DNA of 64,000 nt from Salinispira sp. Lineage in GTDB: Bacteria > Spirochaetota > Spirochaetia > DSM-27196 > Salinispiraceae. Location: the NCBI GenBank assembly GCA_965226555.1, contig CBDDDG010000010.1, positions 32,001 through 96,000 of the forward strand, in the 5' to 3' direction. The position numbers were made by a program. Numbering within the stretch: the stretch's first letter is position 1; each line of letters starts with the position of its first letter. Of the stretch, positions 35,601-44,600 are shown in pieces.

Positions 35601-38600
35601 CGCGGCGCCACAATAACCCGGCTCCGGCGGTAGGCGCCTCCCTCGGGCGTGCGTGTTGTTTCAACATTCGCAATGTTGTTGGCAATTATATCCTGACGAA
35701 GCCTCTGAACGGTAAGCCCGCTTGAAGCAATGTTAAGTGTTGAATACAGTCCCATAGTTTCTCCCTTTTCTCAGCCTTCGCTGCGCGCCCTGCGGGCGCT
35801 CTCCGCATACTCTGCGAGCCCTGCGCTATGCGCCGTGAGCTCTGCGCCGCTATGTACTAGTTAAGAACAATGTTCATCTGACGGAAATTATGGTTTACGG
35901 CTGTTACCATAAGATTATAGGCCAGTTGCTGATTGATGTATGTGGTCGATTCGACTTCAATATCGACATTGTTGCCGTTGTTCTTGGCTGTCGTAAGAAA
36001 ATCGGCAACCCTGCGGGGGACAACCGTTCGGTAATCAATTTCCCGCTGAAATGGAATGTGTTTTTCATTAGTAAGATAGGTATTGAACGCGGGAGCTTTC
36101 TCACTTTCAAGAGCCTTTTTCAGGCTGGTCTCAAAATTAACAAACTCCCGCTTAAAATTCGGCGTGTCCGCATTGGCAATGTTGTTGGCAGTAACTTCCT
36201 GACGGTAGAGATTCACACTCATGCTCCGCTGCAGAATATCAAGATTCTTGCCCCAGTTATTATTCGTAAACATCAATTCCCCTCCCCGGGAAGTGCTACC
36301 AGCCCCATCGGAGACGAAGTCTCCGATCAGCAACAGACGCATGGCGAGCAGCGCGGAAGCGCAACCAGTCCCTCAGTCTTGTTGTTATTTTCGGAAGAAA
36401 ATTACACGAGCTTAATAAAGAAACTTTTGCATTGGAAAATTGTGCGTGCACAATTTCCAGGAGCAAAAGTTTCTATTAGATTACTGAGAATCCGGTCGGG
36501 CAGCCGCGCTGTCAGCCTTTTTTGGTTACAAGAATCCTCCAGATACGTTTTTCGGGTTTTTCGAGCGCCTCAATAATATGCCCCTCACCCTCAAGACTGC
36601 GGGGCACATTTGCGGCCGACTCACTATTTCCAAGCAAAATCTCCAGAGTCTCTCCATTGTTAAGACCCTCAAGCTCAAGCTTACTTTTCACAAAGGTGTA
36701 CGGACACACTTCGTTACGTATATCCAGCGATTTCGCAATAGATACATCAGACATACTATTCCTCCATGCCGGCGCTAGGGAAGCGCAATAGGGGTGTCAT
36801 CACGATTACCCCATTCAACCCAACTTCCGTCATACAGGGCAACATTTTTATACCCAAGGAGCCTCAATGCAAAGTAGGAATGCGCGCCGCGAACACCTGT
36901 CTGGCAATGCGTTGCTATGCGGCTATTCCTGTCAATGGTATCGTCATAAATTGTTGCCAGCGTGCTGGCAGTTTCAAACCTTCCATCTGCATCAATGTTT
37001 TTAATCCAATCGATATGAACAGCGCCGGGAATGTGCCCGCCGCGGTTCGCGCGGACATCGCTTCCTTCATATTCATCCTGACTACGGGTATCAAGAACAA
37101 CAAAATCTTCATTCCCATAGTTTGCAAGAATCTCGGCGCTATCAACAATCAGCTCAGGTTGAAAGCGTACTCTGAAAGTTGCCGCCGGCCGGTGTTCATC
37201 AGCCATACGTACCGGATAACTGAGTTCCTCCCATGCCGCGAATCCGCCATCCAGAAGACGCACCTTTCTATGCCCGAGAACTTCAAAACCCCAGAAGGCT
37301 CGCGATGCCCAGAGATTGTTACCGCTGTCATACATAACAATTGTTGTCCTGTTATCTATTCCTCTGGCGCCGAGTTCCGCTCCAATATCTTCAGGATCGG
37401 GAAGCATACCGGCAATACCGTTTCTTTCATCGTAGAATATACTCCGATCAAGATATACCGCCCCGGGAATGTGACCCTTCTGAAAATCTTCATAAGAACG
37501 CCCATAATCAACAACAATTACCCTGTCGAGATTATCCTCAAGCCATTCAGCAGTTACCAGAAGCGATTCTCCGCTTTCCCTGCCGCCTCCGGCAAATACC
37601 ATTGTAAGCACAAGTGCCATTACAATACTACATATAAATGTTTTCATACATTACTCCTTTGATGTAAACATTCGAAACTTTTGCTCTTGGAAATTGTGCA
37701 CGCACAATTTTCCAATGCAAAATTTTGTATCATTTTTCTCAGAACTTTTTTTGCTTTCGCATTTTTTGAAAGATAATTCCGGTCGTCGCCCACACACCGA
37801 ACATGGTGAAAAGCGTTGCGACCATGGAGCTGATACTCAGGGTAGACAGGCCCGTTATGCCATGCCCGATGTTACACCCCCCCGCGATAGATGCTCCTGT
37901 ACCCATTAGCACTCCTCCGCCCAACTGCATAAGCATTCGGCGGGGTTCGGGAAGAACCAGCGCCGCCTCGCCTGCCCGCGCCGCAGCGAAATATGCTCCA
38001 AAGGGAACCCCCGCAACGAGGAAACTTACTACGCTTATCCCTGAAGCATCACCATTCAGCAGCAAATTCCCCCACGATTGTATGGGCTGTGTAAATGAGA
38101 AAATAACATCGATGAAGGAAACGAGCAAATTCCCCCACGATTGTATGGGCTGTGTAAATGAAAGCCCAAAGTCCCTGGATACAAAGGAACTCAAAACCCA
38201 GGTCAGCACCGAAAGAATGCCGACAGCGAGTCCGGTTTGCCACCACTTCCAGCCGTTAACATATTTCTGCTTCGGCGCGCGCAGAAGCCACACAACTCCG
38301 ATAATACTCAGCAGGGCAATAATAAGCCATTTCCAGATACTGTAGTCTATTCCCAGAACATTCCACACACTCGGCGCTTCACCCCGAATATCTATTGTAT
38401 ACGCTCGCAAAAAACGCTGTAGGGGCGCTGCAGGCGCTGCCGCGCCGGTTCCGAAAAGAAGGGCGCCGAAAACAAAGCCCGCAAGCGCCGCCCAACTTCC
38501 CAGCATGCCTCGACCGGCACGGTAACAGGAACCGCTTGTACATCCTCCGGCAAGTACCATACCGGCGCCGAAAATAAGACCGCCGGGAATAAGCGCATAA

Positions 38601-41600: not shown

Positions 41601-44600
41601 TACTTTACAACACGTGTATAGTACGGCGAAGATTTCAGACCGGGATAATGTACTGCTTCTTCTCCCATCTGCCGCGCAAGATATTCGGCAAGATATTTGG
41701 CGTTTTCAAACTGCCGTTCAACCCTGAGGTGCATGGTTTCCAGACTGAAACCGGTGAGAGCCGCGGCCGCAGGCTGCTGAGTCATACCAAGATTCTGCAG
41801 GGCCTGATAGCGAAAGCTTGCAAGAAAGGCATTGTCCTTTCCGAAGCGGGCAGAAAAATCCTGCAGAACAGGGTCCCGCGACTGTGTCCAGTCGTATGTT
41901 CCCTTGTCAATCAATGCTCCGCCAAGTACGGTATTGTTCCCTGCCATAAACTTTGTGCTGCTGTGCATCTCAAGAGCAACGGGAGCAGGAGAAAGATCCA
42001 GAAAACCCGGAGGGGTGAGGGTTGAGTCGAGAAAAACCGGCAGATTCTTTTCTTCGGCAATCGCCGTTACCGTTTCAAGATCCTGGAGATCGAGGGCAGG
42101 ATTACCCATGGACTCACAGAATAGTAAAACTGCTGTGGGAGTGTTTTTTACGACCTTTCTGAGAGCTTCGGAATCGTGAAAATTGGTATACGCAACGTTC
42201 AGACCAAGTTTGCTGAAGAGCCTGTCGAAGAGGGCAATGGTTCCGCCGAAAATTGCCCGGTGGGCAATAATTGTGTCGCCGGCTGAGGCGAGGGTAAGTA
42301 CGGCGCCGCTGATTGCTGCCATCCCTGTTGCGGTGAGTACTGCTCCTCTTCCCCCTGTTATGGCGGCAATTTTCCGCTCAATATTCATAAGGGTCGGATT
42401 CTGAATGCGCCCGTAAATATAGCCGAATTTCTGCCCGGCAAAGACCTTTTCAAGATCGGCAGGGTTCTCGTATGCAAATGCCGAATTCAGATAAAGAGGA
42501 AATTGTGTTGCGCCGAACTGATCGTTCTGCGACTGAAGTATGCGCGTCTGAGCGGCATAATCATTCATTTCCTCCTCCCATAAAATAGAGAAAATTAATT
42601 TCATCGCCGTCAGATATAACGATTGTCGAAAATTCATCTCTGTTCAGAATGCGTCCGTTATGCTGAACGGAAACCATATCGGGCGATTCAACATCCTGAA
42701 TTTCAAGGAGCTTTTCAATATGTAATTGTTCTTCTGTCTGCACACTGACAGTATCATTATTAATTGTCAGCGTGAGTGTTCCTATAGTTTTTTCGGACAT
42801 ACATGGCCTCCACTAAAAATATAGTTCCAAAACTATAGTATGTCAATATAATTTGTCAAGATTAATAAAATATTAATAAAAAGAGACCGTTGCATAATCC
42901 ATGGTTCTATTGAGATGGGGAAGGTTGATAAAAATTTGGGGTAAAACTGGCTGATAATGCCATCTGAGCGCCCGCGAAGGATCGCATTTTGCTCATTTCT
43001 GCCCGTTTTCGGGCTGGTTTCCGGCGCGTAGGCAGGCGATCCCTGTCGGCTTCTGCCGTTTTCCCAAATGCGGCTGCTAAGCCGCCCATTAATGCGATCC
43101 GTTCCGCACTGTCCGCATACTGTTTTCTCCTCCTGAATATCCGAGGATTTTCAAAAGCATATTTCCAGCTATGTACCATACCGATATGATTTTTTCTCAT
43201 ACCATATAGACGGGTAAAATATGAATGGTGAATATGAGAAATTTTTGTAATTATTTTTATTATTTTGGGATATTACTGTTGGACCTGACCCCGGCGCGGG
43301 GCGCGCTGAAGTAGCGCTGCTACGCTTCACCGTTTTTCTGAAATGCTCGAATTTCATCTCCGCTGAGATTGGTGATATCATGAATAATGTCCATCGATAT
43401 GCCCTTCCTGAGCATTTTGAGTACCTGCTCACGTTGGGTTCGATCATGTTCACGCTGGAGCTCAGCACGCCCCTGCTCAAGCCCCTGCTCAAACCTGTGC
43501 TCAACACCTGCCCGCCATGGCTTATCTAAAAGATCTACCAACATACGTTTTACCTCCTCAGGATGTTCCTGCCGGCTGCAGGCCGAGCAACGTCAATTAA
43601 TGCGATCCGTTCCGCAATGTCCGCATTTCCTCATCGCTCAGCCCGGTAATCCTCTGAACAGCCTCGGTCGACAACCCTTCCAAAAACATACTGCGGGCGT
43701 TTTTTCTCCGCTCCTCAATATGCCCCTCCGCGCGACCTGCCTGTAGCCCCTTTTGAAGTCCTTCTTCACGACCTGTCTGCAGTCCTTCCTGTCGACCTGT
43801 TTGCAATCCTTCTTCACGACCTGTTCGCAGTCCTGTCTGCAGTCCTTCCTGCCGACCTGTCTGCAGTCCTTCCTGTCGACCTGTTTGCAATCCTTCTTCA
43901 CGACCTGTTCGCAGTCCTGTCTGCAGTCCTTCCTGCCGACCTGTCTGCAATCCTTCCTGCCGACCCATTTCCGCAATGCGCGCTCTGAATGTTTCCGCAT
44001 TCATTCTGAACATTTTCGCTACCTCCTTACCTCTCGGTTCTTTTGTTCTTTCTAATTGGTTCATTAGCGTATCTAAATCTATAACAATTCCGAACATCGA
44101 ATCTACCACGCCAATAAATTCCTTTATCAGCTCCAGCGATTCTTCATTCAGCATTTCTGCTATCGCTTTCTCCACCTTCTGAATGTCCCAATCCGTATTC
44201 AGCAGATTTTTCGAGTACAGATCAAGGTACATAACAGCCGCAAACATTCTTCCCCGCTGCTGCAGCTGCTCCGCAGAATAATCGCTCTCGCTAATAAGAT
44301 CGTAGGGAAAAGGAGCAAGATACTGCGGGAATTCCCGCTTCCGTTGCTTTCTGACATTCCCCGGCACCTTCCATTTTCTCGTACCATTATAGAACACAAT
44401 GGGAAGAAATACCACCTCGCAGTCATCGGGAATTGCGCCGGAGCGGTGAATGTTCCGATAGAGCAGATTCGTGTACTCCGACATGCGGAGGGGCATGTCT
44501 TTGTTCACTCCAGACTGATGCTCAAGGAGCACATAGATAGCAACATCTCCCGTGTGATCCCGACTCCTGATTTTGCAGACAATGTCGGCCATTCGTGTTT

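Follow-up and report, generated by a model that had tools for sequence, protein, structure and literature searches.

Results

The operon and its setting

The window analyzed here, 64,000 nucleotides of a Salinispira sp. contig, holds eight co-directional, tightly packed genes on the minus strand, running from 42800 to 36512 (Table 1). All eight are real open reading frames, with the composition and order that the genome-wide survey's note had given them. Adjacent genes overlap or lie 7–20 bases apart, except for two gaps of ∼90 bases that flank yeeE. The two promoter candidates just upstream of the operon are the best two of 13 sites in the region. The palindromic repeat, which has a second copy after tusA (36421–36473) and 208 matches in the genome with both orientations counted, is not part of the system. 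Separately, the regions upstream of both metY genes share ATACTATAG, which we record as a candidate only and leave out of the argument. The seven operon genes other than yeeE contain no stops or frameshifts. With completeness at 93.5% and contamination at 6.7% for the host genome, absences are given as "not found."

Table 1. Features of the operon and its surroundings (operon genes from first to last, then other elements)
Feature	Position	Strand	Basis or detail
HcyS-type ThiS-like sulfur carrier, 79 aa	42561..42800	-	C-terminus FLYFMGGG-NE; TIGR01683 48 bits, cut-off 37
Carrier-type O-acetylhomoserine sulfhydrylase (MetY), 422 aa	41300..42568	-	Cys/Met PLP enzyme family; PLP lysine K206
HcyF-type E1 adenylating enzyme, 289 aa, no rhodanese tail	40420..41289	-	PF00899 only
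HcyD-type JAB/JAMM metallopeptidase, 166 aa	39927..40427	-	PF14464; motif HSHPATPSRMSEED
Predicted exported seven-bladed beta-propeller	38912..39919	-	Generic propeller matches only; single cysteine, in C-terminal GNFACF tail
YeeE/YedE-family membrane sulfur transporter, 360 aa	37739..38821	-	PF04143
Predicted exported two-domain rhodanese, 290 aa	36775..37647	-	PF00581 twice; active loop C248-QTGVRG
TusA-family sulfur carrier, 80 aa	36512..36754	-	PF01206; C17 in CPYTFVKSK
In-frame 63-base tandem duplication within yeeE, +21 residues after loop C	38061..38161	-	38-base exact copies 63 apart
Two overlapping sigma70-like promoter candidates	42818..42859	-	TTGACA-16-TATAGT and TTGACA-17-TATATT; 11/12 consensus matches each
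53-base palindromic genome-wide repeat	37674..37726	.	Between yeeE and rhodanese gene

The carrier module

The first four genes have the makings of an HcyS-type pathway. The carrier's glycines are masked by a short tail (MGGG-NE), and the FLYFMGGG terminus followed by a variable tail recurs at all 12 orthologous carrier loci read. The E1 enzyme carries the ThiF domain alone. These features bear out what the survey's note had claimed of the carrier tail, whose ThiS-model score clears the cut-off, and of the rhodanese-less E1. The E1 is the sole ThiF-family match in the genome, stands at 51–54% against the MoeZ-type E1s, longer proteins, that the order encodes, and has two cysteines, C186 and C263, that are invariant in an alignment of 13 orthologues. 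The JAB peptidase encoded in the cluster retains an intact metal motif (HSH-x7-S-x2-D, of the HxHx7Sx2D pattern).

MetY is of the carrier-using kind. Against structures in the PDB, it matches 3RI6 best (289 bits), which we take to be the Wolinella enzyme, with TmMetY 7KB0 scoring lower (255 bits). It lacks the loop and the Arg270 of the ordinary, free-sulfide MetY, with Gln258 occupying the TmMetY Arg270 column. The loop is missing in 11 of 11 carrier-type enzymes and Arg270 in 10 of 11, whereas other MetY proteins keep the arginine in 21 of 21 cases and the loop in 20 of 21. Arg270 has been linked to strict bisulfide use (PMC8191291). The sequences support assigning these four genes to a Wolinella-type protein-thiocarboxylate homocysteine module, and because of the MetY signature, homocysteine would be made here in the Wolinella way. 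The family scores and the lack of an acceptor led us to reject a thiamine (ThiS/ThiF/ThiG) or molybdopterin (MoaD/MoeB/MoaE) carrier: neither MoaE nor other thiocarboxylate users nor a full ThiG was found in the genome, the ThiG model matching once over 51 of 247 positions.

Sulfur metabolism of the host

The sulfite reductase and sulfate-assimilation genes that serve as the sulfur source in the HcyS pathway are not part of the operon, and CysD is encoded elsewhere. A profile search of this 93.5% complete genome found no NIR_SIR domain (the control matched 11/14) and no CysH; of the two PAPS-reductase-family matches, one is CysD and the other SspD, a phosphorothioation protein. Cystathionine enzymes were likewise not found in the genome, and MetX is present. 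The survey's note had asserted all three of these absences, and we concur. Its own counter-evidence, CysK and a second, ordinary MetY, is also present, together with two cysteine-desulfurase matches and a CysE-like gene. On this gene content, sulfate reduction appears to be bypassed in the host.

The import genes

Four residues of YeeE (C25, C94, C316, and R216) align to C22, C91, C293, and R215 of 6LEO, so the three relay cysteines and the outer arginine of TsuA are all in place. The curated models score far lower: 176 bits against the 400-bit cut-off of NF052577, the spirochaete TsuA model, and 125 against 645 bits for NF041049. The "TsuA" label used by the survey's note is therefore too precise. 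A selenium function was rejected, since the YedE/YedF models fall far short of their cut-offs (TIGR04112 31/200, NF033796 76/350, and NF008242 36/79 bits).

The yeeE gene also contains an in-frame tandem duplication, which the survey's note did not mention. It is missing from 19 of 19 aligned relatives, and contigs of sequencing runs X4 and X6 skip it. An assembly artefact is an unlikely source, since a contig of run X1, possibly the source sample, crosses the junction with the duplication in place. The frame stays open and all four key residues are kept. One could argue that the family-level model is right and that the duplication damages the import arm in this strain, leaving the cell to depend on sulfide from the environment or amino acids from a host while the operon begins to decay. 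The insertion lies after loop C at the predicted outer site; the 19 relatives and the contigs of the two other runs lack it, and the run that holds this sequence has it. A repeat that looks mobile also separates yeeE from the rhodanese gene. We nonetheless consider decay very unlikely, given the open frame, the intact key residues, and seven other genes free of stops and frameshifts.

The propeller would belong to an undescribed family in which the terminal cysteine is the only near-invariant reactive residue. An (F/Y)ACF terminus occurs in 67 of 73 homologues, and in each of the 29 loci that allowed the test, the gene directly precedes a close YeeE. In the structural model (pLDDT 89), the last strand ends at residue 325 and residues 331–335 fall under 50. 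This conserved, predicted-flexible tail and the constant adjacency to YeeE make the propeller a candidate periplasmic sulfur carrier. The rhodanese has an active loop that is invariant in 16 of 16 aligned proteins and an N-terminal hydrophobic stretch in 23 of 23. If whole thiosulfate were imported in the manner of TsuA, this predicted export would be harder to account for than if cleavage took place outside the cell and sulfane sulfur was then taken in.

The final gene supplies the SirA/TusA protein expected in an HcyS-type neighborhood. It is 38–49% identical to the sulfite-reductase-fused TusA domains of related carrier clusters, and it shares CPxxFVK(S/T)K with both those domains and the DsrE-linked TusA of carrier clusters. 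When clusters split, TusA stays with the carrier, not with YeeE, in three of three testable genomes. It has CPYT in place of the CPxP that passages of PMC11073785 give as the mark of TsuB/YeeD, and it scores 28 bits against a cut-off of 147.5 for NF041048. Because both YeeE and TusA fall under the TsuA/TsuB cut-offs, thiosulfate as the substrate and the persulfide route are inferences.

Distribution across genomes

A close YeeE is found in all 11 other carrier genomes among the 69 of the order, whereas in the full set of 69 it occurs in 35 (the chance within genera being 0.009). Carrier and import genes are joined in one locus in six of these 11, in three gene orders, and in five of the six the carrier genes enclose the import genes. 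Further joined loci occur in G472, L173, and G158. The survey's note had counted it against the idea that the combination was not shown in other genomes; these loci overturn that point. Its report of a close E1 in one of seven family genomes was not reproduced (none of five family genomes at least 85% complete). A genome-wide scan with YeeE yielded a single close locus and 79 distant loci, and no distant locus had a carrier module.

Several observations limit how this association can be read. The carrier E1s of the order form one moderately supported clade (94–96, quick trees), so the cases are not independent. NIR_SIR is present in none of the 12 carrier genomes of the order, the host included; sulfite reductase is rare throughout the order (3/70), and its absence is therefore not special to carrier genomes. 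Carrier-type MetY was not found in G048, G065, or G072, G015 has it with no E1, YeeE, or carrier found, and a carrier search in five genomes, run without a positive control, gave no match.

Of the 25 carrier genomes outside the order, sulfite reductase is present in 21, the importer in one, and neither in four; G158 combines an importer inside the cluster with Sir elsewhere in the genome. At 14 of the 25 loci, a large sulfite reductase that ends in TusA adjoins JAB, and at none does such a reductase occur together with YeeE. The last four genes of our operon sit after JAB, the place taken by the Sir-TusA fusion in other spirochaetes. Metagenome loci had hinted that Sir and DsrE-TusA exclude each other, an idea we rejected on finding both in 8 of 25 loci of the phylum. 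Co-occurrence, interleaved gene orders, and the Sir-TusA slot together make the import genes the likely sulfur source of the carrier module. The importer is nevertheless a general supply unit and not wired to the homocysteine pathway only, because 24 of the 35 importer genomes of the order have no close E1.

The same count lends weight to a reading in which whole thiosulfate enters through YeeE and TusA splits it to free HS-, as YeeD does, feeding CysK, ordinary MetY, and the adenylated carrier alike; the clustering would then reflect a shared sulfur-starvation regulator with no channelling. The Wolinella carrier, once adenylated, is said to take bisulfide from Sir, which would agree with this reading. 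So would the three cysteines and arginine of the thiosulfate site in YeeE, the Rrf2 regulator that heads several clusters, and the release of H2S from thiosulfate by StYeeD in vitro, as passages of PMC11073785 describe. We judge it unlikely, though worth taking seriously: TusA has neither the CPxP motif nor a score near the YeeD cut-off, it resembles the TusA domains of the HcyS-type pathway itself, and it follows the carrier when clusters split. Import of whole thiosulfate would also leave the predicted exported rhodanese and the cysteine-tailed propeller jobless, though both are kept beside YeeE.

Alternatively, the carrier could be loaded from cysteine by a desulfurase and TusA, replacing transsulfuration, while the propeller, YeeE, and rhodanese serve some other sulfane-sulfur or selenium purpose (detoxification, export, or sensing) and merely share TusA. 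The host's desulfurase matches, CysK, and CysE-like gene, and its apparent lack of cystathionine enzymes, would suit such a scheme, as would the four outside genomes without Sir or YeeE. IscS-TusA-MoaD is the E. coli route in passages of PMC5372717, and according to those of PMC11582611, selenium and zero-valent sulfur are among the substrates of YeeE-family proteins. Yet none of the neighboring ORFs scanned at 12 carrier loci is a desulfurase, the selenium models score far below cut-off, and the importer occupies the sulfur-source slot. Without sulfite reductase, moreover, cysteine too needs reduced sulfur from outside. We regard this alternative as quite improbable.

Discussion

Before this work, the survey's note had read the locus as a thiosulfate importer wired to a homocysteine pathway. 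The Wolinella-type module, marked by its MetY signature, the import genes as its likely source, and the bypass of sulfate reduction all survive our analysis; exclusive wiring does not. We hold with moderate confidence that the operon makes homocysteine from reduced sulfur of outside origin, probably thiosulfate or polysulfide, and that this sulfur would travel as a protein persulfide, not by way of sulfite reductase.

The scheme takes its footing from observed gene content, catalytic residues, MetY subtype, co-occurrence, and gene slot. C248 of the exported rhodanese would take a sulfane sulfur off thiosulfate or polysulfide, and C334, the terminal cysteine of the propeller, would deliver it to C316, the outer cysteine of YeeE, which would hand it inward to C17 of TusA. 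We infer the substrate, the direction, the propeller's role, and the transfer from TusA to the carrier. JAB would remove NE from the carrier, E1 would adenylate the exposed glycine, and the TusA persulfide would convert the adenylated carrier to a thiocarboxylate. Carrier-type MetY would then couple this thiocarboxylate to O-acetylhomoserine, and JAB would release homocysteine for methionine synthase. Trimming, adenylation, the MetY step, and release would follow the established chemistry of these families. For the step from TusA persulfide to thiocarboxylate, MoaD provides a precedent (PMC5372717, in passages).

What is new here is a probable importer-fed variant of a known carrier-protein homocysteine pathway. 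It suggests how spirochaetes that lack Sir make methionine from environmental reduced sulfur with no reduction cost. It also puts forward a protein as the candidate acceptor of the sulfur that leaves the YeeE/TusA pair, a proposal that six small soluble proteins would suffice to test. In the clusters with a Sir-fused TusA domain, that domain may likewise hand its sulfur directly to the carrier, and the free-bisulfide step in the known pathway would then need refining. More broadly, and tentatively enough that we would call it possible but doubtful, the FACF propeller may be a new class of periplasmic persulfide carrier. Together with the rhodanese, TusA, and a dedicated subfamily of YeeE, it would make up a sulfur wire built wholly of protein, from outside the cell to the homocysteine carrier. 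TusA would then be the common entry port of the HcyS pathway as a whole, with sulfite reductase, DsrE, and YeeE as interchangeable suppliers.

The closest known system is the HcyS/HcyD/HcyF/MetY/Sir protein-thiocarboxylate pathway of Wolinella succinogenes, reportedly worked out by Krishnamoorthy and Begley in 2011. That pathway shares with the operon a tailed carrier, a JAB peptidase, a rhodanese-less E1, a carrier-type MetY, and a TusA/SirA protein. Unlike those clusters, the operon encodes neither a reductase for sulfite or PAPS nor an ABC transporter for sulfate; the propeller, YeeE, and exported rhodanese fill that place, ahead of a free-standing TusA. Iyer et al. 2006 state, in passages on neighborhood 4e, that carrier clusters always contain TusA/SirA, with a predicted rhodanese-like role (PMC1779556).

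Passages on TsuA/TsuB of E. coli and Spirochaeta thermophila (PMC7449682, PMC11073785) show the same YeeE fold family, three relay cysteines, outer arginine, and nearby TusA-family partner. The operon differs in that its YeeE and TusA fall below both NCBIfam cut-offs and its TusA has CPYT instead of CPxP, and those passages mention no counterpart of its two predicted exported partners. It also offers a candidate protein acceptor for TusA sulfur, a question that the 2024 YeeE-YeeD study (PMC11073785), in the passages concerned, leaves open. SoxT1A/SoxT1B of Hyphomicrobium denitrificans likewise pass periplasmic protein-bound sulfur through a YeeE-type protein to a cytoplasmic sulfur transferase such as TusA; there, according to passages of PMC11582611, the carrier is SoxYZ and the setting is sulfur oxidation and signalling, whereas in the operon the carrier would likely be the FACF-tailed propeller and the setting assimilation. 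Finally, in the IscS-TusA-MoaD/MoeB and mycobacterial MoeZ-CysO-CysM-Mec relays, as passages of PMC5372717 and PMC3227635 present them, a persulfide likewise turns an adenylated ubiquitin-like carrier into a thiocarboxylate. Those relays draw sulfur, unlike the operon, from cysteine or from an unknown donor through a fused rhodanese and yield molybdopterin or cysteine, and thiosulfate is judged unlikely as the physiological MoeZ donor (PMC3227635, in the same passages). CysO and Mec, as described there, parallel the amino-acid-on-carrier chemistry that we propose for the operon.

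Results

The carrier-importer operon consists of eight ORFs, in the order carrier, MetY, E1, JAB, propeller, YeeE, rhodanese and TusA, and profile and domain matches bear out the families assigned to them in the genome-wide survey's note. Most junctions are overlaps or 7- to 20-base spacers; the exceptions are ~90-base gaps on both sides of yeeE, one of which contains a palindromic repeat of 53 bases resembling REP or MITE-type elements (208 genome-wide matches, both orientations counted). Two sigma70-like sites, each with 11/12 consensus matches, lie just 5′ of the operon. Lipoprotein-like surface proteins such as those predicted nearby are typical in host-associated bacteria.

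Coordinates of the features discussed (window positions unless a locus is named)
Feature	Position	Remark
Operon, minus strand	42800 to 36512	
Palindromic repeat	36421-36473 and 37674-37726	
Duplication in yeeE	38061-38161	
Clustered ORFs and ORF fragments carrying short tandem repeats	42907-47012	Directly upstream of operon; ORFs presumably Rpn/YhgA-like transposase family (label based on motifs)
Several putative lipoprotein-like surface proteins	28408-34863 and 47292-49424	Fibronectin-III-like domains with PARCEL/BspA-like or propeller repeats
metX-metW	L154 (G000:C22:33940-39242)	
Carrier-type MetY of G015	L156:8184-9440	
cysQ-cysD	L152:6483-8263 (G000:C1)	
SspB-SspC-SspD	L153 (G000:C14:5512-14387)	
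YeeE-rhodanese frame of G009	L021:5444-7474	
DsrE2-TusA pairs, metagenome loci	L180-L276	

The carrier ends in MGGG-NE, and FLYFMGGG with a variable tail closes 12/12 carrier orthologues examined. The metal motif of JAB reads as complete, and the E1, which has no rhodanese tail, has C186 and C263 kept in 13/13 aligned sequences. The top PDB match of the operon MetY is 3RI6, which we take to be the Wolinella MetY (289 bits, above the 255 bits of T. maritima MetY); 3RI6 and the operon MetY have in common a loop deletion and a Gln at the position of TmMetY Arg270. According to passages of PMC8191291, Arg270 forces bisulfide use in MetY, and the Wolinella enzyme takes a protein thiocarboxylate. 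Among carrier-type MetYs, the loop is missing in 11/11 and the Arg in 10/11 (the exception is from G027); other MetYs in the same alignment keep the Arg in 21/21 and the loop in 20/21. Since MoaE, a full ThiG and a second E1 were not found in the genome, homocysteine is the likeliest product of the carrier module. MetX, MetW, a CysE-like gene and methionine synthase are also encoded. An Rrf2 regulator near metX-metW, which shares 43% identity with the Rrf2 regulator at the head of the L036 cluster, is a candidate regulator of the operon. The G015 genome (99% complete) has a carrier-type MetY, and a close E1, YeeE and carrier were not found there; this MetY may be a relic or a free-sulfide user.

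The sulfite reductase domain NIR_SIR was not found in the genome, and its matches to the PAPS-reductase family are CysD and SspD, in keeping with the survey's claim that both reductases are missing; at 93.5% completeness, missing genes count as not found, not as proven absent. The cysQ-cysD pair adjoins envelope genes, with neither CysH nor Sir found, and likely provides sulfate activation for sulfation, not assimilation. Phosphorothioation genes (SspB-SspC-SspD) have a match to cysteine desulfurase and a helicase as neighbors.

A close E1 (65-70%) occurs in 11/69 other genomes of the order, a count that excludes four further genomes with a longer MoeZ-type E1. All 11 also have a close YeeE, versus 35/69 overall; the within-genus chance of this co-occurrence is 0.009, for related genomes that are not independent. 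NIR_SIR was found in 0/11 of them and in 3/70 genomes of the order. Carrier and import genes are joined in one locus in six of the 11 (G009, G027, G048, G065, G066 and G067), and the gene order of G472 and of metagenome locus L173 is identical to the window's, so the combination does occur outside this genome, where the survey's note had not shown it. The six joined loci show three gene orders, and five of the six loci enclose the import genes between carrier genes. The halves lie at two contig ends in G072 and are split in G013, G069, G070 and G071, where TusA stays with the carrier, away from YeeE, in 3/3 testable cases. MetY is not in place in four joined loci; it was found elsewhere in G066 and G067, and no carrier-type MetY was found in G048, G065 or G072. 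Close YeeE occurs without close E1 in 24/35 genomes of the order. In 6/10 such loci widely examined, the importer adjoins an additional rhodanese that has no signal stretch; none of this kind was seen in carrier-bearing loci.

Outside the order, 25/400 genomes of the phylum have a close E1. A large sulfite reductase with TusA at its end adjoins JAB in 14 of these 25 carrier loci, import genes lie inside one (G158), and none (0/25) holds both. Genome-wide, NIR_SIR is present in 21/25, close YeeE in 1/25 and neither in 4/25, G158 having both; G155 has a TsuA-like YeeE (34%) ~1 Mb away. Among 80 metagenome loci, Sir and TusA form a single 811-857-residue frame in 16, DsrE and TusA occur in 36, YeeE in 2, and none of these in 20, many of them short; L184 is apparently the same sequence as G158. 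The DsrE2-TusA pair, very common in these HcyS-type clusters, also stands next to Sir-TusA in 8/25 phylum loci. In quick trees, the order's E1s form one clade (support 94-96) amid Sir- and DsrE-linked relatives, and the G158 E1 falls in a sister group of DsrE-linked E1s, a placement under which the carrier-importer pairing probably arose once or twice.

The identification of YeeE as a TsuA holds in part: C25, C94, C316 and R216 align to the relay cysteines and outer arginine that passages of PMC7449682 describe for a solved family member, but the score lies under both TsuA cut-offs. A 63-base in-frame duplication in yeeE is absent from 19/19 relatives; it is missing from the contigs of sequencing runs X4 and X6 and spanned in X1. 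It is strain-specific and may change or harm the outer site; that the importer is damaged in this strain seems to us highly improbable. The TusA motif, CPYTFVKSK, has no CPxP and is similar to CPMNFVKTK of Sir-fused TusA domains (23/30) and CPMTFVKTK of DsrE-linked TusA (40/46). A hydrophobic stretch lies at the N terminus of the rhodanese in 23/23 cases, from which we infer that this protein is exported. In G009, YeeE and this rhodanese form one 677-residue frame with the hydrophobic leader kept internally, a single case that may reflect a lost stop.

The propeller is modeled as a seven-bladed fold (pLDDT 89), with the last ten residues predicted outside it and the final five below pLDDT 50. 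Among 73 homologues of 200-500 residues, 67 terminate in (F/Y)ACF despite ~20% identity. An ORF with this ending lies immediately 5′ of close YeeE in 29/29 testable genomes or contigs (G034, where the locus is cut off, is left out) and of distant YeeE in 0/79 loci. Because the lone conserved cysteine sits on a loose tail, the model suggests a sulfur-carrying arm, which we presume resembles those of SoxY and DsrC. The host of the operon is a spirochaete: the propeller shares 96% identity with an entry titled "YncE family protein [Salinispira sp.]", and the single close locus that carries a name comes from a Spirochaetaceae MAG.

Discussion

On balance, we lean toward a relay in which the rhodanese would draw sulfane sulfur off thiosulfate or polysulfide, the propeller tail would deliver it to YeeE, and TusA would receive it inside the cell and sulfurate the adenylated carrier; MetY would then make carrier-homocysteine, to be freed by JAB. 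That the import genes feed the carrier at family level, by whichever route, we hold with considerable confidence; the odds that the substrate is specifically thiosulfate are roughly even. Precedents appear in passages on MoaD sulfurated from TusA persulfide (PMC5372717), periplasmic sulfur imported via SoxT (PMC11582611) and DsrE3A handing sulfur to TusA (PMC4175335). Thiosulfate could instead be imported whole and free sulfide then released, the behavior ascribed to StYeeD in PMC11073785; we rate this as unlikely here. CysK and a second MetY, which the survey's note had held against its own proposal as users of free sulfide, are indeed both present, the latter of the ordinary kind by alignment. 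Loading of the carrier from cysteine via a desulfurase we find more doubtful still than sulfide release. The relay remains our preferred reading.

The carrier pathway itself is already known and was reportedly the subject of primary papers in 2011. PMC5764234 covers it, and the passages of PMC1779556 on carrier clusters name SirA along with sulfite reductase and sulfate transport and, as had been claimed, make no mention of thiosulfate. YeeE, TusA and DsrE make up the known YTD cluster (PMC13047784), and rhodanese-fused E1s take thiosulfate in vitro (PMC3227635). Neither a link of YeeE to the carrier pathway nor a description of the propeller was found in search listings from an open-access library; subscription papers or supplements could hold either. 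Set beside these systems, what is new here is an importer variant of a known carrier pathway, together with one undescribed component.
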